Translations under genes and position numbers: made by a program
From: Candidatus Methanomethylicia archaeon
GTDB taxonomy: Archaea > Thermoproteota > Methanomethylicia > Nezhaarchaeales > B40-G2
Length of the DNA stretch: 49,007 bases
Direction of reading: 5' to 3'
Assembly: GCA_029259155.1 (NCBI GenBank)
Contig: JAPDJI010000021.1
Location: 1-49,007, forward strand
Notes under the pieces: model-generated
Seen by the model: only the letters and a program-made list of their open reading frames with translations
The model's database searches: none
What the model was told of the DNA's origin: nothing
Part shown: piece by piece, positions 1 to 19,074 of the stretch
Position numbering within the stretch: position 1 is the first letter of the stretch
Layout of the letters: the number at the start of each line of letters is the position of its first letter

Positions 1-58
1 AGGCCTCGTAGACCATCCTAGAAAGCTCTTCAGCTAGGGCTAAGCAGGGCTTAGCCAT
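1..58 (-). CDS. 5' end of a gene running off the window edge (MAKPCLALAEELSRMVYEA...), next in the cob operon; function unknown
   Basis: ATG at 58-56 overlaps the cobY stop region and is preceded by GAAGTGGGG; the frame is open to base 1. Confidence 0.55.
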   Translation of the reverse strand, partial: MAKPCLALAEELSRMVYEA

Positions 59-678
59 GGATAGGCCCCACTTCATTAATCAGCCTCTCAGCTAGCTGTA
101 GGTCCTTGAGGGTGTTGATGTTGACCGCCACCTCGACCCTTCTGAGGACCAGGAGCTCCTCGTCGATCCACTCCTCGTCGATCAGCGAGGCGTCTAGTAC
201 GTTAATCCCTGAGGGGGCCACCATCAACCCCTCGGCTTCAAACACGTAGCTTGGCCTTATTCCAAGCGCTTCATAGACCTCGTAGGGGGCCACGACGGCC
301 AAGGAAGGCCTGCTGCAATGCGTAAAATAATACCTAACTATATGATCTATGAGCAGCCCGCTCAATAATGGCAGGTCGCAAGCGACTACGAGCACGGGTC
401 CCTCGAGCCTTAGCGCCTTTACGGCGTATCGTAGATCCTCAATGTATCCCTCGCCGGGCGACTAAGGCCTCCGCTCTAAGCCCCCTCGCGACTTCATAAG
501 TGTTGGGCGTGTGCCTCGACGCCACGACTACTACTCTCTCCACGTAGCGGGCCTGCTTAAGGGCCTCCACCACGTAGTTGATTAAAGGCCTGCCAGCGAT
601 CTTTACTAGCGGCTTCTCAACGCCTAAACCTAAGCGAGTGCCTCGGCCTCCAGCCATTAATAAAGCTGGGAGGCGCAT
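51..678 (-). pseudogene. cobY: GTP:adenosylcobinamide-phosphate guanylyltransferase (archaeal CobY), split by a frameshift between 462 and 439 (pseudogene or assembly indel)
   Basis: ORF 439-678 has MAGGRGTRL...EKPL; the +1 frame continues SPGEGYIEDL...VVACDLPLL...NINTLKDL into ORF 51-395; lies directly downstream of cobS. Confidence 0.85.
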
Positions 679-1437
679 CTACAGAACCCTCCCGGCGACC
701 ACTATCGTAGTCAACGACGCTGCGCGCGCCATCTCATTTAGGGCCCCAAACACGTCCCCAGTTACCCCGCCAAGTAGGTTGTGAGAAGCCCTAGCCACGA
801 TTAGCGTCAAGGCCATTGCACTTAGCACAGCTAAGAGCCCTTTCAGGAACATAAGCCACCAGGCTAGCCCGAGGCATGAAGCTATGGACACCGTGAGGCG
901 CGTGGGCCACCCAGGGCTTCTCGCAGCTTTCACGAAGCTAGCACCCATCCCTGGATAGGCGGGTTTTTCAAGGCTCGCCAACAGCACCATCGACAGCTTA
1001 GCTGCGGCCTCCGACGACGCTAAGCTACGTAGAAGCTCCTGTCGAGGGAGCTCTGAGACGCAGGCTATGGACAGTAGGACTATGAGAAGGGCTAGCATGA
1101 AGCCTCCAACTCCAACTTGGACGTCCTTCATGGCCTTAACCCTCTCCTCCGGGGGCCCATGGGCCATCAACCCGTCCCCTAGGTCCATGAGGCCGTCTAG
1201 GTGGTTGAGGCCTGTGATCGCCAGTATCAAGCCTATAGCTACAACCCCTGTGAAGAGGCCTGGGACTACTTCAGCTACCAGCTGAGCTACGGCGCCCGCC
1301 AACGATCCTATGAAGGCGCCGATTAAGGGAAACCAGTACATGCCCAGCGCTGCGTCGACGAGGCCTCCTTCACTAGGCTTAAGCGGTACCACCGTCAGGA
1401 AGGTCAACGCTGCCCTCAGCTCCCTGAGGAGCTTCAA
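679..1437 (-). CDS. cobS: adenosylcobinamide-GDP ribazoletransferase (cobamide synthase)
   Basis: Polytopic membrane protein with FLT, TGLNHLDGLMDLGDG, MKD..VGVGG and GGVTGDVFGA motifs. Confidence 0.95.
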   Translation of the reverse strand: MKLLRELRAALTFLTVVPLKPSEGGLVDAALGMYWFPLIGAFIGSLAGAVAQLVAEVVPGLFTGVVAIGLILAITGLNHLDGLMDLGDGLMAHGPPEERVKAMKDVQVGVGGFMLALLIVLLSIACVSELPRQELLRSLASSEAAAKLSMVLLASLEKPAYPGMGASFVKAARSPGWPTRLTVSIASCLGLAWWLMFLKGLLAVLSAMALTLIVARASHNLLGGVTGDVFGALNEMARAASLTTIVVAGRVL

Positions 1438-2594
1438 GGCTTCCTAGACCTCCGCTTAGCTAAGAGCCTCGAGTACATGTTCGAGGAGGAGCCTGCGATG
1501 AGCCCTCCGATGACGTCGTCCATGAATGGCCCCAGCCGCTTCAAGACGCCGGGCTTAGCCTTATCGAACCTAACGAACTCGAATAGCCCCTTAGTGCCAG
1601 CGATGTACTTGGCTATCTCCATGCCCAAGATTTCATCCGCCAGCAGCGAGACAGGGTCCTCCTTGAAGGCCTCGGCAGTCAGCCCAGGTATCAAGCCCTC
1701 CTCCCCGTCTTCTTGAAGCCTTAAGCCCGCTAGGACTAGGGACGCTACGTTAATGTCCTCCAAGGCCTCCAATAGGCATTCACGTAGGACCTCCACCACT
1801 TCCTCCCTGCTGCCCATGTCTGGGTGGTAGACTAGAGGCTCTAGAGCAGCGTCTAATAGGTCGTCGAAGGTTATACCGCGTTCTTCAAGGCGTTTAATTA
1901 AGGGCCTAATGGGTAAAAGGCCTTCATGCTTCACGACGGCCTCCTTGACGCCCTCCAGCACCCCCAGGCTTACCAGCCTTCCAAGCTCAGTAGCTAGCCC
2001 AGCGTAAGCGACCCGTTCGCCCCTACGCGTACACGCTACGACAATGGAGTCCGTCGAGGTACATGTGGCTGGCCTGCCTGATGCCCGACTCCTAACATCG
2101 AGCCTCCTAAAGGCCTCAGCCTTGGCCTCAGCCACTACTCTAACGAGCTCCACGAGGCAGGGGTCCTCGACGGCTCCGTCGACGAGCAGGATGATGTTGA
2201 CGGTGCCCACCGCCTTCACGTCTACTGAGTCCAGGATCGACACGGCGTTGGAGAGCCCCGCGGTCACGAACACGTCCACAGCGATGGCGCCGCACTTAAG
2301 CCCTCTATGGGAGGCCTTGTTGACGGCGGCGGCCGTCATTAAGCCCACGACGGGCCTAGGCAGCTGGAGGCTATGTGCCACCTGTTCAAGGTAGGCGGCT
2401 GGGTTGGGCTCGTTGAAGCCGCTCGGTACTTGATGGTTGAGTATCGACCTAGCCCTACGTAGGCCGCCGTTGAGCAAGGCCGAGCTCAACGCCTTTAGTG
2501 GGCGGCTGGACTCCACGACTAAGTTGCCTCCGTCCACGTAGCATCGAACCCCTTGACACGAAGGGTTGAACTCCACCCTCGCCCACCTCCTCAA
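1434..2594 (-). CDS. cbiS: bifunctional adenosylcobinamide amidohydrolase (CbiZ) / alpha-ribazole-phosphate phosphatase (CobZ) fusion, CbiS-like
   Basis: N-half has LSSALLNGG, GLMTAA, GTVNII, EAK and ATCTSTD (CbiZ); C-half has DINVASL, DPVSLLADEILG, IAGTKGLFEFVRFDKAKPG and GPFMDD (CobZ/PgpA-like). Confidence 0.9.
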   Translation of the reverse strand: MRRWARVEFNPSCQGVRCYVDGGNLVVESSRPLKALSSALLNGGLRRARSILNHQVPSGFNEPNPAAYLEQVAHSLQLPRPVVGLMTAAAVNKASHRGLKCGAIAVDVFVTAGLSNAVSILDSVDVKAVGTVNIILLVDGAVEDPCLVELVRVVAEAKAEAFRRLDVRSRASGRPATCTSTDSIVVACTRRGERVAYAGLATELGRLVSLGVLEGVKEAVVKHEGLLPIRPLIKRLEERGITFDDLLDAALEPLVYHPDMGSREEVVEVLRECLLEALEDINVASLVLAGLRLQEDGEEGLIPGLTAEAFKEDPVSLLADEILGMEIAKYIAGTKGLFEFVRFDKAKPGVLKRLGPFMDDVIGGLIAGSSSNMYSRLLAKRRSRKP

Positions 2595-3559
2595 AGAAGC
2601 GTTAAGCCCAGGGCACTGCCCAGGGCCGTTAGAGGCACCACGGCCAGGGCGATGAAGAGGGCCACGGTAAGCTTCATTAAGCGCAGGGCGGCCCTAACGT
2701 GGCTTATCGACAGCTCCTCTAAGCCGTCGCCGAGCGTGTAGAAGCCTGGCTTCTCGAGCTGGACGCGTAGGGCTCCAGCCATAGCCGACAGAGGCCACCC
2801 TGAGTTTAAGCTGTCGGTCCTTCCCCGATCCCTCCTCAAGACCCTTAAAGCCCTCCTCCAGTCCATGCCGGCAAGCCACGCCGCGCACACCATTAAGCAC
2901 CCGGTAACCCTGGCGGGTACGTAGTTAGCCAAGCTATCGAGCTTAGCCGCAGCCCAGCCGAGGTGGGTGAAGGGAGGGTGCCTATAGCCGACCATGGAGT
3001 CTAGGGTGTTGATCACGCGGTAGGCCAAGGCTCCTAGGAAGCCTAGGAGGGCGAAGTAGAGGAGAGGTGAGGTGACTCCGTCCACGGTGTTCTCGCCTAT
3101 GGACTCGACCGAAGCTGAGATCAGCTGGCTCCTCGAGAGCCTCCTCGTATCCCTGCTAACTATCCGCGAAACGAAAAGCCTAGCGGCTTCAAGGTCTCCG
3201 TTAGCCATGGATTCCACGATCGGCTCGACGTGTTGCTCCATGGACTTTATCGCGAAGGTCGTCTTGAGCAGGGCCGCCACTAAGAACAGGTATATGAACG
3301 TGGGCAGGGCTGTGCTTAGGAGGCGTAGCGCTAGGTAGAAGGTCGAGGTGAACAGGGCGAGGGACGAGGTGACGAGCAAGAAGCCTCCCAGCCTCCCCCT
3401 AACCCTACGCTCAAGGAACAGGACGTAGCGCCCAACCCAGACCGTTGGGTGAAGCTTCGAGGGAGGTTCCCCAAGGAGTAGGTCGAGGGACAGGGCTGTA
3501 AGCAGCACCGTGAGCTTAACCAACACCGGGCTCAACCAGACAATCAAGGTTTCACTCAC
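2591..3559 (-). CDS. cbiB: adenosylcobinamide-phosphate synthase
   Basis: DLLLGEP..HP, IVSRDT, ESIGENTVDG, YRVINTLDSMVGY, NYVPAR and NSGWP motifs. Confidence 0.95.
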   Translation of the reverse strand: MSETLIVWLSPVLVKLTVLLTALSLDLLLGEPPSKLHPTVWVGRYVLFLERRVRGRLGGFLLVTSSLALFTSTFYLALRLLSTALPTFIYLFLVAALLKTTFAIKSMEQHVEPIVESMANGDLEAARLFVSRIVSRDTRRLSRSQLISASVESIGENTVDGVTSPLLYFALLGFLGALAYRVINTLDSMVGYRHPPFTHLGWAAAKLDSLANYVPARVTGCLMVCAAWLAGMDWRRALRVLRRDRGRTDSLNSGWPLSAMAGALRVQLEKPGFYTLGDGLEELSISHVRAALRLMKLTVALFIALAVVPLTALGSALGLTLL

Positions 3560-4691
3560 CGAGCACGGCTACCAGGGCCCTCAAAAGCGCCTCGTTCTCT
3601 AAGCGCCTTCGAACGGCCACCCTGATGTAACTTCTGCCCAGCCCCCTGAACGAGCTACAGTCCCTAACTAAGATCCCGCGCTTCATTAGATCGGCCTTCA
3701 ATGTGGTCGACGTCTTGCCCGTGCCTCCAACGTCGACCAAGAAGAAGTTGGCCTTGGTGGGGAAGGCCCAGACCCCGCTGAGCCTCCTAAACCTCTCGTA
3801 GACGTAGCGCCTCTCCCTCGCCACGAGCGACTTCACTCGCTCTAGGTACCTTCGATCCCTCAGGGCCTCGACCGCCGCCGCCTGGGCTAGGACGCTCACG
3901 CTCCAAGGGGTCTTGACCCTAGACATCAGCCCGGCCACCTCCTCAGAGGCCACCGCGTAGCCTATCCTCAGCCCTGGCATCCCGAAGGGCTTGGTGATGG
4001 ACCTCAACACGAGGAGGTTCGAGTAGCTGTTGACGAGGTCGACCAGAGAGGCTGGCTCGTCGACAAACTCGACGTAGCTTTCGTCGATCAGCACCAAGGC
4101 GCCTGCCTCGTGGGCTTCACGTACTATCTTAAGTAGGGCCTCGCGTGGCGCTAGGTAGCCCGTAGGGTTGTTGGGATTGCATAGGAAGATTGCCTTCGTC
4201 CTCCTGCTCAAGCTCTGCAGCACGGCCTCAGGGTCGAGCGAGAACCCCTGCTCCTGCTTAAGCATGAGGGGCTTGACCAGGCCCCCCATCTTGGCTACGC
4301 ACACCTCGTACTCGCTGAAGGTAGGGCATGGGATGAGTGCTTCATCCCCCTCCTCCACGAACGTGAGCGCAAACAAGTGGATTAGCTCGGTCGAGCCGCA
4401 GCCCACGATCACATTGTCTGGGCCTACGCTTCCTAGGTACTCCGCTACGGCCTCCTTGACCGCTCTACACTGAGGGTCAGGGTAGAGGTTGAGGAGGTTC
4501 AAGGATTCTTTAATGGCTCTCAGGGCTCGAGGTGGGGGACCTAGAGGGCTGACGTTCGAGCTGAAGTCCACGACCTCCACGCCTAGGCTTAGCGCCTCGC
4601 CTCCATGGACGCCCGGCCTAAGCCTAAGAACCACCCTCCTCGCTGAACGAAGGGGCAGCCCTCCTTTGTCACGCATTGAGGCTGAGTCCAT
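3552..4691 (-). CDS. cobD: L-threonine-O-3-phosphate decarboxylase (PLP-dependent, HisC-like)
   Basis: VHGG, DFSSNVSPLG, NPNNPTG, DESY and RSITKPFGMPGLRIGY motifs; start placed at the ATG at 4691 behind GGAGGAGG rather than at 4775. Confidence 0.9.
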   Translation of the reverse strand: MDSASMRDKGGLPLRSARRVVLRLRPGVHGGEALSLGVEVVDFSSNVSPLGPPPRALRAIKESLNLLNLYPDPQCRAVKEAVAEYLGSVGPDNVIVGCGSTELIHLFALTFVEEGDEALIPCPTFSEYEVCVAKMGGLVKPLMLKQEQGFSLDPEAVLQSLSRRTKAIFLCNPNNPTGYLAPREALLKIVREAHEAGALVLIDESYVEFVDEPASLVDLVNSYSNLLVLRSITKPFGMPGLRIGYAVASEEVAGLMSRVKTPWSVSVLAQAAAVEALRDRRYLERVKSLVARERRYVYERFRRLSGVWAFPTKANFFLVDVGGTGKTSTTLKADLMKRGILVRDCSSFRGLGRSYIRVAVRRRLENEALLRALVAVLGE

Positions 4692-4744
4692 GGCCTCCTC
4701 CGCCTTCAGGGTCAGGTGGGTCGCGTGTGCCAAGACCTTGCACC

Positions 4745-4762
4745 GTAGGAAATATTTCCTAT
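4745..4762. promoter_or_regulatory. candidate operator upstream of the cobD-cbiB-cbiS-cobS-cobY operon
   Basis: GTAGGAAATATTTCCTAT, containing a perfect 16-bp palindrome at 4746-4761; resembles the sites at 7509 and 11568. Confidence 0.65.
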
Positions 4763-4847
4763 ATCTTCGGCGCACTAATATCGCTTGCGCTCCGCCATCA
4801 ACGCAAGCTGGTTAGCTCAACACGCGGCTGCGTCGGGGAGGGCCTCC

Positions 4848-5534
4848 CTAGACCCCCTCAGCGTGCTGCAGTATGCTCATCAACGCGGCGCACCCATAGG
4901 CTCCGCGGCTCACGACCTCGACGACCGCGTACCTGTAGCTTGAGTGTAGTAGCGGTGAAGAGTTGACTAGCGTATGGTACTCGCCTCCCTCGCCGAGCGG
5001 GTCCCACCCCTCCTCCTCGCACACCTCGAGGAACCACTCCAAGTTGTCTTTGGACACCTCGACGCCTAGCAGGTCGGCTCTAGATGTGGACTTAACAGCG
5101 ACCACCGTGAAGCCCACTCCGTCCTCAACCATCTTCCTCAAGAGGGGCCTAGTGGGGTGCTTGAAAAGGGGCTCGAGCAGATCCACGCCTACGCGCCTAC
5201 ACGCCTTCTCGTGCCACTCTAGGTGTTCCTCGAGGAGCACGTCGCCAGCTACTAAGGTCTCAGCCCCAAGCTCCTCGAGCTTCTCCGCGAGAGCCTCGTT
5301 CTCGCGGCCGCTCCTCAACTCAACGACCTCTAGGGGGAGGCCCATGTCCTCGGCGAGCGCCGCTACGGCGTGCGCGTTGAGCTCGTGGGGACTGGGCTGC
5401 TGGAAGGAGGGTCTCACGAATAGGAGGGCGTCGACGTCGACCCCAAGCTCCTTGGCTTTCATGATCGAGTACATTGAGTCCTTGCCTCCGCTAAAGAGAG
5501 CCACGGTGGCCACCGCGCTTTCCACCGCCCTCAA
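4848..5534 (-). CDS. DUF71/COG2102 (diphthine-ammonia ligase-like) PP-loop ATP pyrophosphatase, probable B12-salvage subgroup
   Basis: FSGGKDS PP-loop, AGDV, EPLF and DPLGEGGEYHTLV; located inside the cob cluster. Confidence 0.85.
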   Translation of the reverse strand: MRAVESAVATVALFSGGKDSMYSIMKAKELGVDVDALLFVRPSFQQPSPHELNAHAVAALAEDMGLPLEVVELRSGRENEALAEKLEELGAETLVAGDVLLEEHLEWHEKACRRVGVDLLEPLFKHPTRPLLRKMVEDGVGFTVVAVKSTSRADLLGVEVSKDNLEWFLEVCEEEGWDPLGEGGEYHTLVNSSPLLHSSYRYAVVEVVSRGAYGCAALMSILQHAEGV

Positions 5535-5536
5535 CT

Positions 5537-6304
5537 CTAGACCCTCGGGTAGAGGTTGAGGACCTCACCCACCACGGGCAGGCCGCTGTGGATGTAGGAG
5601 ACGTTGTCTAGGTGCCTCCTAGCCAACGATGCCGCCTCCACGACCTCTTCAGGGGTGGCGGAGCGCCACGGCTGTCCAGGGACCCTGACGTAGCCGTCTA
5701 CCCTGAAAGGTATGGAGCGGTCGACTGACGCTATGAACTTGGAGATGCGTTCGATCTCCTCGATGTCTATGAGCCCCGGTATGAGCACGCTCTCGGCCCT
5801 AACCTTCACGCCGATCTTAGCGGCGCGCCTAAAGTTCCTCAGGACCCTCTCGTTGGGTCTTCTCGTGTAGTATCTGTGAAGCCGGGGGTCCAGGGCCTTG
5901 AGGCTTATGCAGACCTCGTCCAGCCCAGACTCCTTGAGCGCCTCGATAGTCTTCTCGTCCAGTAGGTACCCGTTGGTCAGTAGGACTGTGTAGACCCCCC
6001 GTTCCTTGAAGAGCCTCACCACGTAGGGCAGCGACCTATCTAGGGTTGGCTCTCCACCACCCAAGACGACGCGCTCAACCTTCAAGTCCTCGATCAAGCG
6101 GCTGAGCTCGCTTAGCGATAGAGTGGAGCTTGGTGAAAGCTTGCTTAGCTTAAGCTGCGTCTCCACGGGGATGTGGCAGTCCCAAGGCGAGAGCTTTAAT
6201 ATACACCCTCGGCATTGGAAGTTGCAGCCCTTGAAGAACAAGTAGGCCAAGAGGTCGTGGAAGAAGAACACGAGGTGATATATCCTCGTCTTCACGGCGA
6301 ACAC
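5537..6304 (-). CDS. radical SAM protein (PflA/COG1180-like core); true start may be the GTG at 6295
   Basis: GCNFQCRGC, GGGEPTL, LTNG and LIPGLID motifs; 2 bp from the DUF71 gene. Confidence 0.88.
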   Translation of the reverse strand: MFAVKTRIYHLVFFFHDLLAYLFFKGCNFQCRGCILKLSPWDCHIPVETQLKLSKLSPSSTLSLSELSRLIEDLKVERVVLGGGEPTLDRSLPYVVRLFKERGVYTVLLTNGYLLDEKTIEALKESGLDEVCISLKALDPRLHRYYTRRPNERVLRNFRRAAKIGVKVRAESVLIPGLIDIEEIERISKFIASVDRSIPFRVDGYVRVPGQPWRSATPEEVVEAASLARRHLDNVSYIHSGLPVVGEVLNLYPRV

Positions 6305-6484
6305 CGAGGAGCCTCTGCACTTTTCCTACCACCATTCAGGTAGGCCGATAAAAGTATTGCCTCGAGCGCCTACTCCTTGCGCCTAGCCCTCTAATGAGTT
6401 GCACATCGATAGGTACTTCCCCCGGTGCGCTTGAGTGCGGCAGCAGCCCCCAACAAGTTTGTAAGCGTGTAAGCCGTAAAGGAC

Positions 6485-7348
6485 TTGATGCAGAGGAGAG
6501 TACCCTTCATCACTTTCTGTACTAGGCCGGCGAGAAAGGCTTGGATCAACTTAGCTGGCTGCAACTTTGACTGTAGAGGATGCTTTGCGCTGGCTAAGGA
6601 GGACGTGGGCAGGGCGTTCTCGGTCGCCGAGCTAGTAAGCTTCTTCGTCGAAGCGTGCCTCTACATTTACGGGTGCCTCGTCGACGACGTAGTGATAACG
6701 GGCGGTGAGCCCACCTTAAACCCCGCCTACTTGGTAAGCTTAATCGAGCGTTTGCGGAAGGCGGGCGTGTCGAGGATCTCACTGTCAACTAACGGCCACC
6801 TCTTGGACGAGGCCCTCGTCAGGCAGTTGAAGGTCCTGGGCGTAGGCCCGGTTAAGCTGGATATAAAGGCGTTCAGCGAGGACATACACTACTGGTATAC
6901 GGGGAGGAGCAATAGGAATGTGTTGAGGGCTGCGAAGCTGCTCTACGACTACAGCGTGGACTTCTACGCCCGGACGATACTCATGCCTGGCATCGTGGAC
7001 GTAGACGAGGTGGAGAAGATAGCCAAGTTCCTGTCGTCCATAAGCCCGGAAATACCCTACCGAATATACGAATTCGACCCCTCTCACGCAAGGCAGCCCG
7101 TGGCTAGGAAGCCGACCCTTGAGGAGATGGCTAGTGCCTTCGAGGCGTCTAAAAAGTACTTGGTCCACGTCGAGTCCATCCCCGCCTCCATCGCGTACGA
7201 CTCTAACTACGAATACGTTGAGGTGCGCGACGACATGCTCCTAGATCGATTCAACAAGATCGACGAGGTCTCGAAGCGATCAATCAAGGGCTGGAAGATG
7301 AGGGGCATCCCCTTCAGTGAGGTCTTTTCAAGGCGGGGACGTGGCTGA
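6485..7348 (+). CDS. radical SAM protein (PflA/COG1180-like core), paralog of the divergent gene
   Basis: GCNFDCRGC, TGGEPTL, STNG, DIKA, YTGRSN and LMPGIVD motifs. Confidence 0.88.
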   Translation: MMQRRVPFITFCTRPARKAWINLAGCNFDCRGCFALAKEDVGRAFSVAELVSFFVEACLYIYGCLVDDVVITGGEPTLNPAYLVSLIERLRKAGVSRISLSTNGHLLDEALVRQLKVLGVGPVKLDIKAFSEDIHYWYTGRSNRNVLRAAKLLYDYSVDFYARTILMPGIVDVDEVEKIAKFLSSISPEIPYRIYEFDPSHARQPVARKPTLEEMASAFEASKKYLVHVESIPASIAYDSNYEYVEVRDDMLLDRFNKIDEVSKRSIKGWKMRGIPFSEVFSRRGRG

Positions 7349-7475
7349 CGTTCACGGAGTCGACGATGCTTAAGCCCTCGTAGTTCAGGCGGTCCGCAAC
7401 TCCGCTAAGCCGCTCTTTAATAGCGGCACTACTTCCTAGGGGCACTGCTCGCAAGCTAACTGCTATAGTGCTCAT
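7314..7475 (-). pseudogene. possible truncated remnant of an MTH1187/YkoF (thiamine-binding, DUF77)-like gene
   Basis: MSTIAVSLRAVPLGSSAAIKERLSGVADRLNYEGLS resembles the family N-terminus (xxAxxSVVPLGT...SGL); only 53 codons. Confidence 0.25.
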
Positions 7476-7495
7476 GGTTTTAAAGCACGCCTCAG

Positions 7496-7526
7496 AAAAG
7501 TTAATTAAGCAGGATAAATATCCCAC
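7496..7526 (+). promoter_or_regulatory. btuFCD promoter (BRE AAAAG, TATA TTAATTAA 7501-7508) with candidate operator at 7509-7526
   Basis: GCAGGATAAATATCCCAC lies directly between the TATA box and the start codon; 15/18 identical to the cobT site. Confidence 0.65.
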
Positions 7527-7528
7527 TC

Positions 7529-9046
7529 TTGATGCCTATGAATAAGTTAAATGCCATAGGGTTGCTTGTGGTATTGGCTGCGTTCGTGGCGTCGAGCCTA
7601 GCGTGCTCAATGATGGCTGCTCCTAGCTCGTCTAACGAGTTCCCGGTGACGATCGTCGACGACTTTGGTAGGCAGGTCACCATTGATAGAGAGCCACAGT
7701 GCATCATTTGTCAAGGGCCGAGCTGCACTGAGATCGTCTACGCCCTGGGCGCCCTCGACAAGGTCGTTGCCGTGGACCCCTACTCAGACTACCCACCTGA
7801 GGTCGCCGAGAAGCCGAAGATTGGGGCCTCAGGCCTAGGCTACATTAAGCTCTCAGCTTCGGCCGAGGACTTTGAGACGCTGGACCCAGACTTGATCATC
7901 ACGTACTCTTACGTTGAGGAGAGCGAGGCCGACGACACCATACTCCCGCGACTGGAGGCCCTCGGCCTCAAGGTGATAGTGCTCAGGCCCCTCACCTTGG
8001 AGGATGTCCTGTCCAACATCGAGCTCGTCGGGAAGGCCTTGGGGAGGGAGAGCGAGGCCTCAACGCTGGTCCAAGACCTCAGGGTCAGGATGGAGATGAT
8101 AGAGGAGAGGGTGGCGGACGTCACTTATAGGCCGAAGGTGTATATAGAGTCTTGGTACCCGCCGCCGTGGACCTTTGGGCCCGGTACTTGGGGCCATCAG
8201 CTCATCGAGATGGCTGGTGGGGCCAACGCTTTCGGCGATGCCCAGGTGCAGTGGGTCAGGACCAGCGACGAGGAGGTCATTGAGAGGGACCCCGACGTAA
8301 TCGTAAGCCTGCGGGGGGCTATGCATCAAGCCACCTTGGAGGACTTTAGAGCTAGGCCTGGCTGGGGCCAAGTGAGGGCTGTCCAGCAGGGCTCGGTTTA
8401 CGTGGTGGACGAGAACTTGTTCCTTAGGCCTGGCCCGAGGCTGATTGAGGGCCTAGAGGTCTTGGCGGGTATCCTCCACCCTGAGATCTTCGGGAGTGTC
8501 GAGGTGGTGGCGACTGACGTAGACGTGGACGCCGTCAATAGAGGACTGGCTCAGACGCTGTCCGGTGTCGCTGAGTCCTTTAACTTCACCCTGCTAGTGA
8601 CGGAGGCTGCAGCTCCCAGCAACTTTACGCTGAAGACCACCGTAATTAAGGTGGGCCCCAGCCCTCCGCAAGGTCTCAGGGCGGTCGGCGCCTACTTAAA
8701 CATCCACACTAGCATCTCAGGCGTTGCCTTGAGGATGCTCGCGGTCATCAGCTACGACGAGGCTGAGGTAGGGAGGCTAGGAGTGAGTGAAGAGACGCTG
8801 GCGGTCTATAGATGGGATGGCGGAGAGTGGGTTGAGGTGCCGAGTGCCGCGATGGTCGATGAGGACCTGGTGGTCGCAGTGGTCAACCATACAAGCTACC
8901 TAGCCTTAATGGGGATGCCCAGCCCTCCACCGCCTCCACTAATATCGACTCCCATACCGCTCTGGCAGGCGTTAATGGTGGGTGTCGCGGCAGCAGTTGC
9001 CCTGGGCCTGGTGGGCTTCGCGTTAGGGCGTAGGAGGCGGAGGTAG
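7529..9046 (+). CDS. btuF: cobalamin ABC transporter substrate-binding protein with an extra C-terminal surface domain and PIP-CTERM-like membrane anchor
   Basis: Signal peptide, FPVTIVDDFGRQV, TEIVYALG and RPGPRLIEGLE; about 180 extra residues ending PPPPP..PIP-TM-RRRRR. Confidence 0.88.
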   Translation: MMPMNKLNAIGLLVVLAAFVASSLACSMMAAPSSSNEFPVTIVDDFGRQVTIDREPQCIICQGPSCTEIVYALGALDKVVAVDPYSDYPPEVAEKPKIGASGLGYIKLSASAEDFETLDPDLIITYSYVEESEADDTILPRLEALGLKVIVLRPLTLEDVLSNIELVGKALGRESEASTLVQDLRVRMEMIEERVADVTYRPKVYIESWYPPPWTFGPGTWGHQLIEMAGGANAFGDAQVQWVRTSDEEVIERDPDVIVSLRGAMHQATLEDFRARPGWGQVRAVQQGSVYVVDENLFLRPGPRLIEGLEVLAGILHPEIFGSVEVVATDVDVDAVNRGLAQTLSGVAESFNFTLLVTEAAAPSNFTLKTTVIKVGPSPPQGLRAVGAYLNIHTSISGVALRMLAVISYDEAEVGRLGVSEETLAVYRWDGGEWVEVPSAAMVDEDLVVAVVNHTSYLALMGMPSPPPPPLISTPIPLWQALMVGVAAAVALGLVGFALGRRRRR

Positions 9047-9056
9047 CTGGGGTTTA

Positions 9057-10133
9057 ATGGTTGAGGAGCGCGTGGATCTAAGCAGGGCTGCGAGATGGAG
9101 CCTTACGATCCTCACCCTCACCCTCATCTTATTTACTTGCTCCGCGTTCTCCATAAGCGTAGGAAGCGTCGAGACCTCCGTGGCCGACGCAGCTGGAATA
9201 CTGCTTGGACAGGTCCCGGGCTTTAAGCAAGTCTTCGGGGCTTGGTGGAGCGAGACTCAGGAAGTGGTCGTAGTTCAGCTTAGGCTGCCTAGGCTTGTAT
9301 CCGCCGTGCTAACGGGGGTGGCCTTAGCGACCTCAGGCGCAGTCTTTCAAGGGATGTTTAGGAACCCGCTGGCCGACCCCTACGTCCTCGGCGTGGCCTC
9401 AGGGGCTGGGCTTGGAGGGGTCGCTGCTACGCTACTTAGCCCCAGTCTCCTGCCCATGAGCGTCGTCTACGCCAGGCCCCTCATGGCTTCAACGACCGCC
9501 ATCCTAACGATCCTCATCGTCTACGCAGTAGCGAGGACTGGAGGAAGGGTGCCTGTGCTGAGGCTCGTCCTAGCTGGGGTGGCCGTAAGTAGCTTGATGT
9601 CCGCGTTGACCATGCACCTCCTGTTCTTCGCTGGAGAGAGGGGGCACATTGCCTTAGCATGGCTCTTCGGCTCCTTCGCGATGGTCGAGGGTAGGTGGGA
9701 CTACGTGGAGATGGCTGCGCCGCTCATATTGACGTGCTCGGCGCTAATGTTCCTCTTCTCGAGGGACCTCAACGTCTTAGCGATGGGTGAGGAACAGGCT
9801 AAGCACTTAGGAGTCGAGGTCGAGTCGGTCAAGAAGGCCTTATTGGCCCTGGCTTCAATAGCCACGGCGGCCGCCGTGGCTATAAGCGGTGTTATCGGCT
9901 TCGTGGGCCTGATAGTCCCCCACGCGATGCGTTTAATAGTTGGCCCAGACCACCGCATACTCCTCCCTTCATCAACCTTAGCTGGCGCAACGCTACTGGT
10001 TGCCTGCGACACTTTGATCAGGGCCAGGGTCATCGCCCCCGCTAGCGAACTACCAGTGGGGACCATTACTGCGATGATGGGCTGCCCCTTCTTCCTGTAC
10101 CTCCTAGTTAAGAGCAGGAGGGTGGTTGCGTAG
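9057..10133 (+). CDS. btuC: cobalamin/iron-chelate ABC transporter permease (FecCD family)
   Basis: LRLPR, QGMFRNPLADPYVLGVASGA, IGFVGLIVPH and ELPVG motifs. Confidence 0.92.
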   Translation: MVEERVDLSRAARWSLTILTLTLILFTCSAFSISVGSVETSVADAAGILLGQVPGFKQVFGAWWSETQEVVVVQLRLPRLVSAVLTGVALATSGAVFQGMFRNPLADPYVLGVASGAGLGGVAATLLSPSLLPMSVVYARPLMASTTAILTILIVYAVARTGGRVPVLRLVLAGVAVSSLMSALTMHLLFFAGERGHIALAWLFGSFAMVEGRWDYVEMAAPLILTCSALMFLFSRDLNVLAMGEEQAKHLGVEVESVKKALLALASIATAAAVAISGVIGFVGLIVPHAMRLIVGPDHRILLPSSTLAGATLLVACDTLIRARVIAPASELPVGTITAMMGCPFFLYLLVKSRRVVA

Positions 10134-10136
10134 ACG

Positions 10137-11465
10137 ATGTCGGGGAGAGCCGTGATTAAGGTGCGCGGCGTCGAGTTCGCGTACGACTCCGTGAAGGCCT
10201 TGGACGGGGTAAGCTTAACGGTCGACAGAGGGGAGTTCCTAGGCCTCCTAGGCCCCAACGGCTCAGGGAAGACTACGTTCCTTAGGTGCCTCACGGGGGT
10301 TTTGAAGCCCAAGGTAGGTGTCGTCCTATTGGACGGTCGAGAGGTGTCGTCCATGAAGGCGGTCGACGTCGCTAGGAAGGTAGCCGTCGTCCCCCAGCAC
10401 ACGGCCACAACCTTCGACTTCACGGCCCTCGACGTAGTGATGATGGGCAGGCACCCTCATTTAGGTAGGTTGAGGAGGGAGTCTGGGAGGGACCTGGAGG
10501 TTGTCCGAAGATCCATGGAGCTCGCTGGGGTGCTGCATCTAGCTGATAGGCCCATTAACGAGTTGAGCGGCGGGGAGAGGCAGAGGGTGTTCATAGCTAG
10601 GGCGCTAGCGCAGGAGCCCAAGATCCTGCTCCTCGATGAGCCCACTACGCACCTAGACTTAAACCACCAGCTCGAGATCATGGACTTGCTCGAGAGACTA
10701 CGCGTAGATCAGGGGCTTACGGTCGTCGCGGTTCTACACGACCTCAACTTAGCTGCTAGGTACTGCGACCGCTTGGTCCTAATGAGCCACGGTAGGATAA
10801 GGGCCTTGGGACCTGTCGAGGAAGTGCTTAGGAGTGAGGTCATCGAGGAGGTCTATGGCGTCGAGGTCGAGGTAAGGAAGCACCCAGCGACAGGGTCGCT
10901 ATACATAGTGCCACTGTACACCGTGAGGAGTCGCAGGGCCTCGGGCGTTAGGGCAAGGATCCACGTGATATGCGGCGGGGGCACAGGCGCCTCGATCATA
11001 AGGAGGTTGGTGAACGAAGGCTTCGAGGTGAGTGTGGGAGTGGTGAGTGTCCTCGACAGCGATTATGAGGCAGCTAGGGCGTTAAAGGTGGAGGTGGTGG
11101 CTGAGGCCCCCTTCTCGCCGATCAGCGACGAGGCCTTTGCTAGGGGCCTTGAAGCAGCCCTGAAGGCAGACCTAGTGCTGGTAACGGACGCGCCTTACGG
11201 GCGCGGCAACCTGAAGAACCTCGAGATAGCATTGGAGGCTGCTCGCCGAGGCGTTAAGGTAGGCCTGCTCCTCGACCGTGAGGACTTCCCAGCGACGAGG
11301 GACTTCACGGGCGGAGAGGCCACGAAGCTCCTTGAGGAGGTGCTTGAGAGCGTTAGCGCTTTTACAGCCAGCACCCTGGAGGACTTGATGAGGGCCCTAG
11401 AGGCTTCGAGAGGGGAGGCGTGCACTAAGCTTAGACCTCAACTCTCTACTAAAACCTCTCCTTAA
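10137..11465 (+). CDS. btuD: cobalamin ABC transporter ATP-binding protein with a C-terminal extension
   Basis: GPNGSGKT, LSGGERQR, LLDEP and LHDLN motifs; about 170-aa tail starting IHVICGGGTG. Confidence 0.9.
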   Translation: MSGRAVIKVRGVEFAYDSVKALDGVSLTVDRGEFLGLLGPNGSGKTTFLRCLTGVLKPKVGVVLLDGREVSSMKAVDVARKVAVVPQHTATTFDFTALDVVMMGRHPHLGRLRRESGRDLEVVRRSMELAGVLHLADRPINELSGGERQRVFIARALAQEPKILLLDEPTTHLDLNHQLEIMDLLERLRVDQGLTVVAVLHDLNLAARYCDRLVLMSHGRIRALGPVEEVLRSEVIEEVYGVEVEVRKHPATGSLYIVPLYTVRSRRASGVRARIHVICGGGTGASIIRRLVNEGFEVSVGVVSVLDSDYEAARALKVEVVAEAPFSPISDEAFARGLEAALKADLVLVTDAPYGRGNLKNLEIALEAARRGVKVGLLLDREDFPATRDFTGGEATKLLEEVLESVSAFTASTLEDLMRALEASRGEACTKLRPQLSTKTSP

Positions 11466-11550
11466 CTGAGCGGGGCGGTAGACACCATAGCTGCGACAGC
11501 GTAGGCTTCGAAGCGAGGACGCGTGAGCTTAGTGCTGAGTTGTTAAGCAT

Positions 11551-11585
11551 AAAGGCTAAATAGGGCAGTAGGATAAATAGCCTAC
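11551..11585 (+). promoter_or_regulatory. cobT promoter (AAAGG-CTAAATAG) with candidate operator at 11568-11585
   Basis: GTAGGATAAATAGCCTAC lies between the TATA-like box and the TTG start at 11590. Confidence 0.65.
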
Positions 11586-11589
11586 CACC

Positions 11590-12708
11590 TTGAGGAAGCT
11601 CGAGGACTTCGACGTAGCCCTGATCTACAGGGAAGATAAGGGTGAAAGGTTCCTGCGCAGCTTGATCGGTAAGAGGTACCTGTTCGTCTGCGTCGCAGGT
11701 AGCACTGAGACAAGCCTCATCGAGGGGATCACGGTAGCGGGCGCATCACCTCGATTAACGCTTTATACACCTGCAGCTGACGTTGAGTACCTGCTCCTGG
11801 GGCGATGCAGGTGCATAGAGTCTATCCCCATCACCCCTGAGGGCGTACCCACGCCCGCTCTAATAACGAGGGCTGCGCTGAGGCTGGCTGACGCACCCGC
11901 CCTCGTGGTTGATGGAGGATCCTACGTCGAGCCTGGCGTGCCCCACGTGGACGTTGGAGGGAGCCCAAGCCGCGACATCAGGACGGGTTCGGCCATGGAC
12001 TACGATAGAGCCCTCGAGTCCTATAGGAGGAGCGTGGCCTTAGGCCGCGAGCTTTCCAAGCTCTGCGACTACTTAGTAGTCGGCGAGAGCATACCGGCTG
12101 GGACGACGACGGCCCTCGCCGTGTTGATGGCCTTAGGCGTTGACGCCAAGAACAAGGTTAGCAGCGCCATGCCGAACAACCCTCACGGCCTAAAGGCTAG
12201 GGTGGCCGAGGAGGCGTTGATGAAGGCCGGCCTCGCCCCCGGCTCCTTCAGCGACCCCCTTGAGGTGGTGTCGAGGGTGGGCGACCCCATGATGCCTAGC
12301 TTCGCTGGTCTTGTAGTGGGGGCTGTCGATAGTGTCCCCGTAATCATGGCTGGGGGCACCCAGATGGCTGCTATAGCCGCTGTAATTAAGTCATTGAGGG
12401 AGGACGCGCTGGACAACGTCATCGTAGGCACGACGAGGTGGATCGTTGAAGACGGGTCGTCTGACATAAGGGGGTTAATCAGCCAAGTGGCTGAGGTGCC
12501 GATTGCTGCAGCTGTCCTCGACTTCTCTAAGTCGTCCATTGAGGGGTTGAGGTTCTATGAGAGGGGTTACGTGAAGGAGGGCGTTGGGGCAGGTGGCTCC
12601 TCGGTGGCAGCCATGATCGCAAGCGGAGGTCGTGTGGACTCCTCTAGGATCCTTAGTAAGGTTGAGGCGGACTATGTCTCGCTTAAGGCTAAGGGCTATG
12701 TGGAGTGA
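11590..12708 (+). CDS. cobT: archaeal-type nicotinate-mononucleotide:base phosphoribosyltransferase (MJ1598/TIGR00303 family)
   Basis: GITVAG, TPAADVEYL, PTPALIT, GESIPAGTTTA, AGGTQM and YERGYVKEGVGAGG motifs. Confidence 0.92.
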   Translation: MRKLEDFDVALIYREDKGERFLRSLIGKRYLFVCVAGSTETSLIEGITVAGASPRLTLYTPAADVEYLLLGRCRCIESIPITPEGVPTPALITRAALRLADAPALVVDGGSYVEPGVPHVDVGGSPSRDIRTGSAMDYDRALESYRRSVALGRELSKLCDYLVVGESIPAGTTTALAVLMALGVDAKNKVSSAMPNNPHGLKARVAEEALMKAGLAPGSFSDPLEVVSRVGDPMMPSFAGLVVGAVDSVPVIMAGGTQMAAIAAVIKSLREDALDNVIVGTTRWIVEDGSSDIRGLISQVAEVPIAAAVLDFSKSSIEGLRFYERGYVKEGVGAGGSSVAAMIASGGRVDSSRILSKVEADYVSLKAKGYVE

Positions 12709-12759
12709 GCTGCAATACTTCACGTGCGCGTCGCAGACTCGTCAACGTGAGTTAGCAGC

Positions 12760-13080
12760 GCCACGCATGCTCATGCTATTACCTGCTCCGCGAGTATACC
12801 TAGGTGCACCTACCCCCTCTGTCGAAAGGTCGTAGACGTAGATCGACCCTTGGGCTCAGGGGTTTGCAAAGGAGAGGCTATCGCTAGCCTTGGGCTCGCA
12901 CTTAATGGTTCAGACGATGAGCTGGCCGTCGAAGTATAGGAGGTTCATGCCACCTCGTCCTTAGGTATGCCTGAAAGCCTCGACAATTCATAGGTGGATA
13001 GGTCGACTATGCCACCCCGCCGTCAACCACCACTACGTCGAAGCACTGGTTTGGCTAGAGCCTCTTGACAGGGACTGGGC
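12760..13080 (-). pseudogene. decayed coding debris: FAD-oxidoreductase N-terminal fragment plus a stop-interrupted unknown fragment
   Basis: Minus strand reads CFDVVVVDGG / GGIVDLSTYELSRL (compare DVVVVGGGIVGLSTAYEL), then MNLLYFDGQLIV*TIKCEP...ANP*AQGSIYVYDL. Confidence 0.45.
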
Positions 13081-13188
13081 TCCTCCTACGTAAAGAGTTA
13101 GAGAAACATATAGGAGTCAAGGGTTTTATAGGCTTAGGAGGGGCTGAATATCTCAAGGTCATTCTTTAAGGTATGGAACGGAGTATAC

Positions 13189-13836
13189 ATGGTGGGCGGG
13201 CCTGAGATAACTTCCATGGAGGACTGTTGCGTCTATGCTATTGATGCGGGCCCTGAGGACGTTGTACTCATAGATTCAGGCTTAGGATTAAGCTACGATT
13301 CTCTCGTGGAGAATATGCTTGAGGCCCGACTAGACCCTAGGAAGTTAAGATTTATTATTGCTACTCACGCACATATAGACCATGTAGGTGGCCTATCGAA
13401 GTTTAAGAGAGACTATGGACCTACAGTAGTGGCTCATAGCCTTGACGCTGACGCCATAGAGATAGGAGACGCTGAACGTTTAGCCTTAGACCTCTACGGC
13501 GTGGACTATGAGCCCTGCCACGTAGATCTAAAGCTCTCTAGAGATGTAGAAATCCTTAGGATAGGTGACTTGGAGCTCACCATTTTACACATACCTGGCC
13601 ATACTCCTGGAAGTATATCCATCTATCTTGATGTAGGTGGGCAGCGCCTCCTTTTCGGCCAAGATATCCATGGCCCCTTCAGCCCTCGGTGGGGCTCAAA
13701 CCTCGATCATTGGAGGAAGTCTATGGAGAAGCTTCTTCAACTTGATGCGGATATACTGCTCGAAGGACACTTTGGCGTGATTCAACCTGCAAGCGCGGTT
13801 AAGAGGTTCATAGAGGATTACTTAAACATCATATGA
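13189..13836 (+). CDS. MBL-fold metallo-hydrolase (reading frame open from 13138)
   Basis: THAHIDHVGG, PGHTPGS, GQD and EGH motifs. Confidence 0.9.
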   Translation: MVGGPEITSMEDCCVYAIDAGPEDVVLIDSGLGLSYDSLVENMLEARLDPRKLRFIIATHAHIDHVGGLSKFKRDYGPTVVAHSLDADAIEIGDAERLALDLYGVDYEPCHVDLKLSRDVEILRIGDLELTILHIPGHTPGSISIYLDVGGQRLLFGQDIHGPFSPRWGSNLDHWRKSMEKLLQLDADILLEGHFGVIQPASAVKRFIEDYLNII

Positions 13837-13837
13837 C

Positions 13838-14347
13838 GTGGTTGTCATGTTAACCCTCTTTTTTGACGGTCTCTGCGAACCTGTCAACCCTGGAGGTATA
13901 GCCTGCGTAGGCTTTGTTGTTTATCTCGATAAAGATAAGATAGGGGAGGGCTCAGGCTTCATTGGTGCAGGTTACCTTGGAGATAACACCAGCAATAATG
14001 TAGCTGAATACAGGGCAGTTATTGAAGGCTTGAGGTGGTTGTTGGTCCATGGCTATGAAGGGAGTGAATTGACGGTAAAGGGGGATAGCCAGTTAATCAT
14101 AAAACAGCTCAGAGGCGAATATCAAGTTAAGTCGAAGAGGCTCAAGCCGTTACACGAGGAAACCTTGAAGTTGTTGAGGAAGTTTAAGCTGATGATGCTT
14201 GAATGGATACCTCGTGAAGAAAACCGCGAAGCAGACGCCTTGAGCAGGCAAGCTTACTTAAGGTTTCTTAAGGAGCATCCTGAAGCGCTGTTAATTTATG
14301 GAGCTAGGTCAAGGAGACGAAAGCCTGGCCCTCCTAAATTCAACTAG
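13838..14347 (+). CDS. rnhA: ribonuclease HI (archaeal type)
   Basis: FDG..EPVNPGG, SNNVAEY, GDSQL and WIPREENREADAL motifs. Confidence 0.92.
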   Translation: MVVMLTLFFDGLCEPVNPGGIACVGFVVYLDKDKIGEGSGFIGAGYLGDNTSNNVAEYRAVIEGLRWLLVHGYEGSELTVKGDSQLIIKQLRGEYQVKSKRLKPLHEETLKLLRKFKLMMLEWIPREENREADALSRQAYLRFLKEHPEALLIYGARSRRRKPGPPKFN

Positions 14348-14770
14348 TTTTTCCAAGTCCTTTGGGCTCACCTCTAAACCATAATGTGGATCGCCTGAGC
14401 TAAAGTTAACCTTTTGCCTCGTAAAGACCTCCTCATCTACTAAGAGCTCGACGTCGATGGTTAATGGACATATTGCACCCGGCTCAAGCCCTAGTTTCTC
14501 CAGCTCAGAAAGGGAGGCGAGGCTAACTTTTTCCTTCACTATCTGGGCTACCTTAGCTAGGTCTACCTTTCGCATGCCTAGAAGCATGACTGCATACAAG
14601 CGTCCACTAGCTCCTCTAAGCAGCACGGTCTTGCATATCTCATCCTCTTTGACTTCATCCTCCGCATACTTTACCACCTCGTTAACGCTCACCGCTCGCT
14701 TCTTGAGCCTTATGAACCTATACTCAACACCGCTTGCACTCAAAATTTGTTGGACCTTTTGCAAGCTCAA
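14309..14770 (-). CDS. YbaK/aminoacyl-tRNA deacylase family protein
   Basis: ICKTVLL, GLEPGAICPL and FSSG motifs. Confidence 0.85.
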   Translation of the reverse strand: MSLQKVQQILSASGVEYRFIRLKKRAVSVNEVVKYAEDEVKEDEICKTVLLRGASGRLYAVMLLGMRKVDLAKVAQIVKEKVSLASLSELEKLGLEPGAICPLTIDVELLVDEEVFTRQKVNFSSGDPHYGLEVSPKDLEKLVEFRRARLSSP

Positions 14771-14844
14771 GGCTTCCCCCCTGGTATTCGGTTAGAGGGG
14801 TGTTTAAGTATAAGCTTGCATAAACCGTAAAAGCGGGAGACTGC

Positions 14845-15336: not shown

Positions 15337-15377
15337 CCTTATTAAGTAACTCTGCATACTAGGCCAAGCGAGGCTCT

Positions 15378-17054: not shown

Positions 17055-17056
17055 CC

Positions 17057-19029: not shown

Positions 19030-19049
19030 GTCTCAGTCTAGCTGAGACA
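19029..19049. promoter_or_regulatory. perfect 8-5-8 inverted repeat between the TATA box and start codon of the CCG-LUD-amidohydrolase operon
   Basis: TGTCTCAG-TCTAG-CTGAGACA; minus-strand GAAAA-TTTATTG lies just upstream. Confidence 0.5.
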
Positions 19050-19074
19050 CTTTCTGTCCTCAATAAATTTTCCG

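Follow-up and report, generated by a model that had tools for sequence, protein, structure and literature searches.

Three genes at positions 4848–7348 of a 49,007-nucleotide stretch of DNA from a Candidatus Methanomethylicia archaeon (contig JAPDJI010000021.1, positions 1 to 49,007; hereafter the window) very probably form an accessory block of corrinoid uptake and salvage and exert their function within that process. They encode a PP-loop protein of the DUF71 family and two paralogous, single-domain radical S-adenosylmethionine (SAM) proteins, here termed rSAM_A and rSAM_B, and lie among genes for the import and rebuilding of cobamides. Overall, we give about an even chance to an account in which the radical SAM enzymes tailor or repair an imported corrinoid by hydrogen abstraction and the DUF71 protein re-amidates it. 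The case for a corrinoid as the direct substrate of the radical SAM enzymes seems to us evenly balanced, and any one specific reaction, for example epimer repair or side-chain tailoring, is improbable when taken by itself.

The DUF71/COG2102 gene encodes a B12-linked paralogue of the PP-loop ATP pyrophosphatases and occupies 4848–5534 on the reverse strand (228 aa; Diphthami_syn_2, PF01902, 5.4e-37, 127.9 bits). A gap of 2 bp (5535–5536) separates it from rSAM_A (5537–6304, reverse strand, 255 aa), and a divergent intergenic region of 180 bp (6305–6484, from the coordinates of the open reading frames [ORFs]) lies between rSAM_A and rSAM_B (6485–7348, forward strand, 287 aa). Both radical SAM proteins match Pfam Radical_SAM PF04055 (rSAM_A 4.6e-30, 105 bits; rSAM_B 3.5e-21, 76.5 bits) and Fer4_12, with a further sub-cut-off match to Radical_SAM_2 in rSAM_A, and they are 31 per cent identical over 236 columns (E 1e-32), as expected from an original prediction, made from the sequence alone, of a DUF71 gene accompanied by two paralogous single-domain radical SAM genes. 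Every one of the shared motifs listed in that prediction is present in the translations: the cluster motif as GCNFQCRGC or GCNFDCRGC, GGEPTL in both, and the pairs TNGYLLDE/TNGHLLDE, HRYYTRRPNERVLR/HYWYTGRSNRNVLR, LIPGLIDIEEIERISKF/LMPGIVDVDEVEKIAKF and IPFR/IPYR. The extra WDCH insert that it described in the protein encoded 2 bp from DUF71 is likewise there, as SPWDCH (a D-x-H motif) in rSAM_A and not in rSAM_B. Both proteins belong to the radical SAM superfamily by their CX3CX2C and GGE motifs and, in the case of the rSAM_B model, by a barrel like that of pyruvate formate-lyase activating enzyme (PFL-AE). All three reading frames are intact; metagenome contigs from four public runs (labelled hydrothermal vent, sediment) cover positions 1–9000, mostly at 95–99+ per cent likeness, with zero indels within the three genes.

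The link to corrinoid salvage is carried by the gene neighbourhoods of related loci. These were taken as the best 80 of 317 confirmed stretches in a scan that covered each species with one genome, and neighbours were scored by comparing the window proteins with the ORFs of every one of these loci. In a quick maximum-likelihood tree of 105 family members (IQ-TREE; rows shorter than 200 aa, including a fragment at locus L048, and rows below 100 bits omitted), rSAM_A falls into clade A (13 rows, support 99) and rSAM_B into clade B (17 rows, support 99). B12 context marks 12 of the clade A rows, the other being a long-branch Methanobacterium row, and all rows of clade B were scored as having it (compare, however, locus L004 below). 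At 16 of the 17 other clade B loci, that is, the 16 in the tree and the L048 fragment, there are btu and/or cob genes in the flanking DNA covered, against a btuF, btuC and btuD trio at 3 of the 63 remaining loci (L035, L037 and L050). This contrast, together with riboswitches in bacteria, supports the tie to corrinoid salvage that had been proposed, and the gene-neighbourhood analysis suggested as a check on it found strong enrichment of homologues near B12 genes in archaea and bacteria. For evidence drawn from gene neighbourhoods, the link of the radical SAM pair to B12 is nearly as firm as it could be.

By their record titles, the archaeal clade B loci come from Bathyarchaeia/Bathyarchaeota, Hecatellales and Nitrososphaerota-labelled genomes, and the bacterial ones from Elusimicrobia, Omnitrophota, Planctomycetia, UBP18 and one unclassified bacterium. 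The typical bacterial order is (cobC-cobU-)cobT-cobS-cbiB-cobD, then a gene for an asparagine-synthetase-domain protein, DUF71, rSAM_B (with rSAM_A in some cases), btuF, btuC, btuD, cobA and a gene for a TonB-dependent receptor. A cobalamin riboswitch (RF00174) lies upstream on the same strand at four of the five bacterial loci (L010, L013, L048 and L070); the scan covered six loci and gave five matches in these four, L009 being truncated at the 5' end and L011 being archaeal. Because a conserved, riboswitch-linked block is found in two domains of life, the textbook salvage pathway appears to be incomplete for many anaerobes.

Within these loci rSAM_B usually has a gene of the BtuF family or a free-standing CbiZ gene as its direct neighbour, and rSAM_A and DUF71 each accompany it in 11 of 18 loci with the window counted. 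Five loci have, beside rSAM_B, a gene for a BtuF-like protein of 252–296 aa (L001:2810-3700, L008:10874-11716, L011:2750-3598, L012:10874-11716 and L070:7931-8689). As these proteins have no hydrophobic N-terminus they are presumably cytoplasmic, and from their sequences they may be cytoplasmic corrinoid carriers.

The window itself offers the same setting, and the placement of the block between cobD and btuF that had been reported agrees with the Pfam and NCBIfam annotation of its flanks. To the left, all on the reverse strand, are cobY (51–678, split in the assembly), cobS (679–1437), cbiS, a fusion of CbiZ and CobZ (1434–2594), cbiB (2591–3559) and cobD (3552–4775), the last annotated as a threonine-phosphate decarboxylase or HisC-like aminotransferase (TIGR01140, 281.6 bits, cut-off 290.55; TIGR01141 hisC, 291.7 bits, cut-off 276.55). 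To the right, on the forward strand, are btuF (7529–9046, PF01497), btuC (9057–10133, PF01032), a btuD with a C-terminal extension (10137–11465, PF00005; 367.5 bits to the corrinoid ABC transporter ATPase model NF007082, under its cut-off of 537) and an archaeal-type cobT (11590–12708; TIGR00303, 388.8 bits, cut-off 240). Judged by annotation, the flanks are a complete archaeal salvage and nucleotide-loop gene set. Thus, BtuFCD, CbiZ/CbiS, CbiB, CobY, CobS, CobZ, CobT and CobD of archaeal cobinamide salvage all surround the block; the described pathway has neither a radical SAM nor a PP-loop step, and the block adds both.

Some of this has a precedent. In the accessible part of the study by de Crecy-Lagard et al. 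2012 (PMC3541065), DUF71 is split into Dph6 and a DUF71-B12 subgroup found with btuFCD and cbiB, for which a role in pseudo-B12 salvage was proposed, so that the link between DUF71-B12 and salvage is not new. The original claim of an undescribed corrinoid module therefore holds for its salvage context and fails for novelty in this one respect. That same portion of the paper does not tie radical SAM genes to the subgroup. As far as their accessible text goes, a review of B12-dependent radical SAM enzymes from 2026 lists CbiZ, CbiR and CobS as the only remodelling enzymes (PMC12931638), and a 2024 study of Bathyarchaeia names BtuFCD and CbiZ and not the radical SAM or DUF71 genes (PMC11697101). 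No literature tying this radical SAM family to corrinoid salvage was found in a search that left subscription journals mostly uncovered, and an earlier mention is possible.

The DUF71 protein of the window resembles members of the B12 subgroup such as P. furiosus PF0295 in several respects: it clusters with btuFCD and cbiB, it is a paralogue additional to a true Dph6, it carries a PP-loop (FSGGKDS, residues 14–20, with the SGGKDS core), and its second motif ends in Y-H. The genome holds three DUF71 genes, the true Dph6 being on contig C16 (271.5 bits, cut-off 197.3); the window protein scores 107.9 bits against the same model, Dph6_archaeal (TIGR03679), and does not reach that cut-off of 197.3. 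It differs from the subgroup in that its motif is GEGGEYH, with a glycine where the ENGEF/YH given in place of EGGE/DxE in the accessible text of PMC3541065 expects an asparagine, in that its best NCBIfam match is the TTX_0299 family (156 bits, cut-off 250), and in that it coexists with CbiZ. The same motif reads GEYGEYH in a paralogue on contig C29 and GENGEYH in the bacterial locus L013.

Coexistence with CbiZ also bears on the 2012 proposal that DUF71, taken by itself, is an amidohydrolase standing in for the bacterial CbiZ in pseudo-B12 remodelling. An anti-correlation of DUF71-B12 and CbiZ in bacteria appears in the accessible text (PMC3541065), and CbiZ, which is found in 14 of the 17 other genomes that carry rSAM_B, is missing from three of the five bacterial ones (G009, G013 and G016). 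However, bacterial L010 and L070 and most archaeal loci, the window among them, have DUF71 and CbiZ together in one operon, which weakens the idea of a CbiZ substitute, and PP-loop enzymes normally form rather than cleave amides, a point raised by a reviewer in the same paper (PMC3541065). We consider a hydrolytic role of this kind quite improbable.

There is reason to think instead that the DUF71 protein may supply an amidation. The carriers appear to be mostly salvagers, since just one of the 17 has CbiC, which marks ring synthesis. Strong matches to CbiA/CbiP are found in five of them (both in G005, G006 and G007, CbiP in G011 and G013) and in none of the other 12. G005–G007 are exactly those archaeal carriers that have one DUF71, which is Dph6-like, and a CbiP gene lies within the L006 and L007 clusters themselves. 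Every carrier has CbiP/CbiA, an additional or bacterial DUF71, or both; the weakest case is G001, a partial genome of 0.8 Mb whose sole DUF71 match is a fragment of 109 residues. A simple replacement of CbiP by DUF71 was also considered and is weakened by G011 and G013, which hold both on one contig.

The genome from which the window derives is relevant to this question. Ring synthesis is encoded on contig C10 (L107:3-11412) by genes for CobN, CbiX, a CbiC-CbiE fusion, CbiG, CbiT, four tetrapyrrole methylases and a ChlI/D-like protein, and no CbiA or CbiP is recognisable in this 94 per cent complete genome, where the CobB/CobQ amidotransferase domain gives hits of 27 and 24 bits. A second cob cluster of native G+C content, on C29 (L109:468-8535), encodes a second B12-type DUF71 (35 per cent identical to the window copy), a protein of 317 aa with an asparagine-synthetase domain (an AsnB-like PP-loop protein) and an rSAM_A paralogue (237 aa, 40 per cent identity, E 2e-47) with GFEPT replacing GGEPT, in addition to cbiB, cobS, cobD, cobY, a CbiZ-domain protein and cobT. 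The missing amidations may be carried out by the PP-loop ligases.

We infer the substrate and each of the following chemical steps. BtuFCD would import corrinoids, and in some lineages the leaderless BtuF-like protein, presumably in the cytoplasm, would hold them. rSAM_B, joined by rSAM_A where it is present, would take up the corrinoid; cleavage of SAM at the [4Fe-4S] cluster would yield a 5'-deoxyadenosyl radical that abstracts hydrogen from the corrinoid periphery or a side chain, such that an unusable corrinoid (damaged, epimerised or otherwise modified) could become one that CbiZ, CbiB, CobY and CobS can rebuild. DUF71 would adenylate a free side-chain carboxylate of the corrinoid and amidate it with ammonia, a reaction that its paralogue Dph6 carries out on diphthine, and would thereby provide amidation to salvagers that have no CbiA/CbiP. 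Where an AsnB-like protein is present, it may join DUF71 in re-amidating the side-chain carboxylates.

A comparable arrangement is known for haem: radical SAM proteins of the ChuW/HutW type are encoded in haem-uptake operons with an importer of the BtuFCD class and process the imported tetrapyrrole under anaerobic conditions. ChuW is a larger, HemN-like protein that breaks down the ring and so frees the iron, whereas the neighbours of the present block rebuild cobamides. In three loci an AhbD/NirJ2-related radical SAM/SPASM gene stands just upstream of btuF (L005:7031-8053, L006:1342-2439 and L007:6966-8063; 155.5–198.3 bits, cut-off 500); AhbD and NirJ2 are modifiers of tetrapyrrole side chains.

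The radical SAM proteins themselves have a fold whose nearest solved relative is an activase. The AlphaFold2 model of rSAM_B, built on the clade B alignment (pLDDT 93.2, pTM 0.91), has PFL-AE (3c8f) as its top Foldseek match in the PDB (E 5.5e-16, TM 0.68/0.79, 21 per cent identity), followed by viperin, NifB and MoaA, and the sequence profile also favours PFL-AE. With PFL-AE structures (3c8f, 3cb8 and 8fo0) and activases the family shares a minimal partial barrel of ∼250 residues with CX3CX2C and GGE. Judging by the model, this minimal, open barrel suits a bulky substrate, protein or cofactor alike. Against PFL-AE, aligned positions begin no earlier than the cluster motif (chain residue 26–28), and the part upstream is unmatched. 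The residues preceding the motif, TRPARKAWINLAG in rSAM_B and FHDLLAYLFFKG in rSAM_A, contain no DGxGxR, the N-terminal motif with which PFL-AE binds the glycine loop. At the other end rSAM_B has a family-specific C-terminal extension of ∼55 residues, which PFL-AE does not share and in which E246 and W270 are invariant. K128, H135, Y138, T139 and N143 are invariant across the family, and no conserved cysteine beyond the cluster motif was found in the whole-family and clade B alignments. In clade A, an alignment of 10 rows shows D42 in every row and H44 in 9, just past the cluster motif.

It might be expected from this fold that the pair activate a glycyl-radical enzyme whose gene lies elsewhere, such as one of the genome's own two NrdD proteins. 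The top NCBIfam matches are indeed activases (rSAM_B: YjjW 76.6 bits, NrdG2 65 and PFLA 53.6; rSAM_A: NrdG2 45), and the genome has two NrdD-family genes, on C19 and C13, against a single NrdG2. These scores are nevertheless far under the curated cut-offs (250, 131 and 232, respectively), and a genuine NrdG2 exceeds the cut-off of 131 with 193 bits on C2; the check on an NrdD/PFL-activase reading thus leaves the original proposal in place. The N-terminal region of PFL-AE is unmatched, as noted; the RVxGY-type C-terminal motif of the C19 NrdD is missing from the NrdD-like protein of C13 (768 aa); 4 of the 17 carriers (three bacterial, one a partial genome) yielded no NrdD; and PF01228, the glycyl radical domain, is absent from the whole genome. 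Synteny in the examined loci is with btu and cob genes and never with a glycyl-radical enzyme, and the statement that the window contains none is confirmed by Pfam over the cluster and the 35 ORFs to the right of 12.7 kb. We find it hardly credible that the two proteins are activases of this sort. The glycine before the third cysteine, which had been likened to NrdG-type activases, does not support such a likeness either, as the NrdG2 of the same genome reads CPFC and retains the aromatic residue. No NCBIfam model reaches its cut-off for rSAM_A or rSAM_B, and neither qualifies as MoaA (rSAM_A 67 bits against 284, rSAM_B 46 bits), a family marked also by a C-terminal domain with an auxiliary cluster, for which clade B has no conserved cysteines. 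The C19 NrdD gene (C19:15269-18268) is itself unusual in that the Pfam halves of its 1139-aa frame are ∼1.2 kb apart, a gap that points to an intein or some other in-frame insertion.

PFL-AE, Dph6 and asparagine-synthetase-like proteins (of lasso-cyclase type) all have representatives with protein or peptide substrates, and it is conceivable that the radical SAM enzymes modify such a substrate (the BtuF-like protein, CbiZ or a small precursor peptide) rather than a corrinoid. In favour of this, a BtuF-family gene nearly always adjoins rSAM_B, and two bacterial B12 operons contain, between the AsnB-like and DUF71 genes, a gene for a conserved Lys-rich peptide of 38 aa (L009:2975-3091 and L013:6706-6822) directly followed by the gene for the peptide-modifying enzyme CbpB (TIGR04163, 'rSAM_cobopep'; L009:3171-4574 and L013:6895-8274, 702 and 679 bits). 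The peptide and CbpB are, however, confined to these two loci, and a motif scan for CbpA-like peptides in the other loci and the own genome returned nothing but one unrelated short hit. In archaeal loci such as L002 the gap of ∼44 bp between btuF and rSAM_B leaves no space for a peptide gene, and a conserved candidate target motif was not identified. A protein or peptide substrate is on balance unlikely. CbpB occurs in the same riboswitch-headed bacterial operons as the rSAM_B and DUF71 homologues and differs from them in being of the SPASM class, ∼460 aa long and provided with its own 38-aa peptide, and in being absent, by the motif scan, from the window and the archaeal loci.

Whether the block acts on the corrin or on another part of the cobamide deserves similar attention. 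Were it to make or modify the lower ligand or the aminopropanol linker, it would constitute a new anaerobic route that feeds CobT or CbiB; CobD is present in 11 loci and CobT in L002, L008, L012, L014, L010, L013 and L048. The bza lower-ligand genes are likewise located in cob operons, and a small radical SAM protein with a PP-loop ATPase recalls QueE and QueC of 7-deazapurine synthesis, to the latter of which DUF71 has a weak match (E 0.0046). Yet the closest adjacency is to BtuF-family and CbiZ genes, which is to say import and cleavage; FolE/QueD-like or ThiC-like precursor genes are not recurrent in the loci; and the block is found with archaeal and bacterial CobT types alike. A role of this nature has, in our view, a small chance of being correct. 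The Bza enzymes are either ThiC-like (BzaA/B/F) or radical SAM proteins with a B12-binding domain (BzaD/E), an architecture that the proteins of 255 and 287 aa do not match: apart from the sub-cut-off Radical_SAM_2 match in rSAM_A, Pfam shows just Radical_SAM and Fer4_12 in them, in keeping with the earlier assertion that they are unlike the Bza lower-ligand enzymes.

The cobalt ion is a further conceivable target. The radical SAM enzymes could adenosylate cob(II) corrinoids by combining the 5'-deoxyadenosyl radical with Co(II), giving Ado-corrinoids for CbiZ and CbiB without CobA; this would be chemically simple, and the D-x-H of rSAM_A resembles, as a partial match only, the His-on B12-binding motif. 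The substrate of archaeal CbiZ is adenosylated according to the accessible part of PMC3541065. Still, CobA is present in 14 of the 17 carriers and in the own genome and stands in the same operon in L009, L010, L013 and L070, and PduO, which is absent from the own genome, is above its cut-off in 2 of the 17 as well. Adenosylation is accordingly very unlikely. The narrower idea of the radical SAM proteins as a replacement for CobA was rejected on the distribution of CobA.

Several observations weigh against the account favored here, tailoring or repair of an imported corrinoid followed by re-amidation. There is no residue-level sign that ties the radical SAM enzymes to a corrinoid, and their closest solved fold relative, PFL-AE, acts on a protein and not a cofactor. 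L004 has no cob or btu gene in 10 kb on one side, the other side being 294 bp long. Because rSAM_B occurs without DUF71 in L005–L007 and without rSAM_A in L008–L012, the three genes need not occur together. DUF71 and CbiP are found on one contig in G011 and G013. A distant pair of A-like and B-like genes in a Methanobacterium metagenome-assembled genome (MAG) lies on either side of nikR (L067:4327-6580) in the vicinity of a CbiM transporter, a DtxR-type repressor, a nicotianamine-synthase-like gene and a third radical SAM gene, which is a nickel/cobalt context and not a cob context. Finally, the comparison genomes are all MAGs, in which absences are soft.

The possibility that rSAM_A and rSAM_B form a heterodimer had also been raised. 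A prediction of the complex (score 0.00, mark 0.32) gave no answer and is evidence neither way; an obligatory heterodimer is excluded by the five adequately flanked clade B loci, L008–L012, that have no rSAM_A.

Most users of cobamides are not producers, and the forms that can be scavenged shape microbial communities. If the radical SAM enzymes act on the corrin, they would represent a new reaction class of radical SAM chemistry, and if the ligases re-amidate corrinoids, this would explain how partly deamidated corrinoids can be used by organisms that lack CbiA/CbiP. The block could even be a first dedicated repair system for a B12-type cofactor, in which the radical SAM enzymes reset damaged corrin stereocentres or side chains of scavenged corrinoids and the DUF71 and AsnB-like proteins re-amidate side chains that have been hydrolysed, although we judge this specific version to be doubtful. 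Were it true, salvagers without ring synthesis in hot or anoxic sediments could use degraded corrinoids, and, as a corollary, the whole family might act on imported or self-made tetrapyrroles, with a ThiS-fused clade of ANME-1 type, described below, as a possible part of the missing route to 17(2)-methylthio-F430. The block offers enzymes that are amenable to testing, being small and single-domain and having thermophilic homologues.

The cob/btu block has features of its own that may inform its history. Its G+C content is 58.7 per cent (positions 1–13000), against 48.2 per cent in the remainder of the contig (13000–49007) and 49.3 per cent in the genome, and a clade B gene is present at E<=1e-40 in 5 of 62 genomes of the host class with the own genome counted. 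From this contrast and patchy spread the block looks like an acquired island and the three-gene module looks mobile. No tRNA genes were found in positions 1–20000, and the cluster of the closest relative (L003) shows no comparable G+C contrast. The split of cobY into two frames, with a break near 457–462, is of a different nature: all four metagenome runs have an extra TT behind 462, insertion of which restores a single open frame of 210 codons, so that the split reflects an assembly error or a rare variant and not a pseudogene.

The radical SAM family as a whole appears to be rare, given that the clade B profile finds just 37 cluster representatives at E<=1e-30 among 1.84 billion proteins. 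In a collection of 5.8 billion proteins rSAM_B has 116 relatives at E<=0.001, none of them with an informative name, and the ESM Atlas matches are generic radical SAM clusters only. A search for rSAM_B-related fusions at E<=1e-20 among proteins of 504–2000 aa returned none, a result of little weight. Beyond clades A and B the tree contains three clades of ANME-1 type: 21 rows that are the leading genes of tandem pairs; 16 rows comprising 15 second genes of such pairs and the B-like gene of Methanobacterium; and 38 rows of ThiS/MoaD-fused forms and their relatives. Two archaeal MAGs with the label 'uncultured Halobacteria' (phylum Methanobacteriota) have two family members in tandem between a btuF-like gene and btuC/btuD (L035:3243-8809 and L037:7909-13042), an arrangement that suggests that the link to the importer predates clades A and B.

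The ThiS-fused sister clade comes almost exclusively from ANME-1-type MAGs, its ThiS/MoaD domain ends in Gly-Gly, and it is represented at 22 loci in the range L036–L079 (e.g. L045:9821-11080). Recurrent neighbours, counted within 6 kb on each side of the anchor across 79 anchored loci, are rhodanese (14), thioredoxin-like (8), YcaO (7), methyltransferase (6), cysteine desulfurase (5) and MoaE (5), and nearly all loci with such neighbours hold a ThiS-fused gene. These recurrent sulfur-related neighbours suggest sulfur transfer by this clade. According to the accessible part of PMC10702137, no enzyme has yet been assigned to the formation of 17(2)-methylthio-F430, for which the ThiS-fused clade is a candidate; thioglycine, Moco and arsenic chemistry fit equally, and in the case of arsenic the neighbours are ArsP, SBF and FMN_red.

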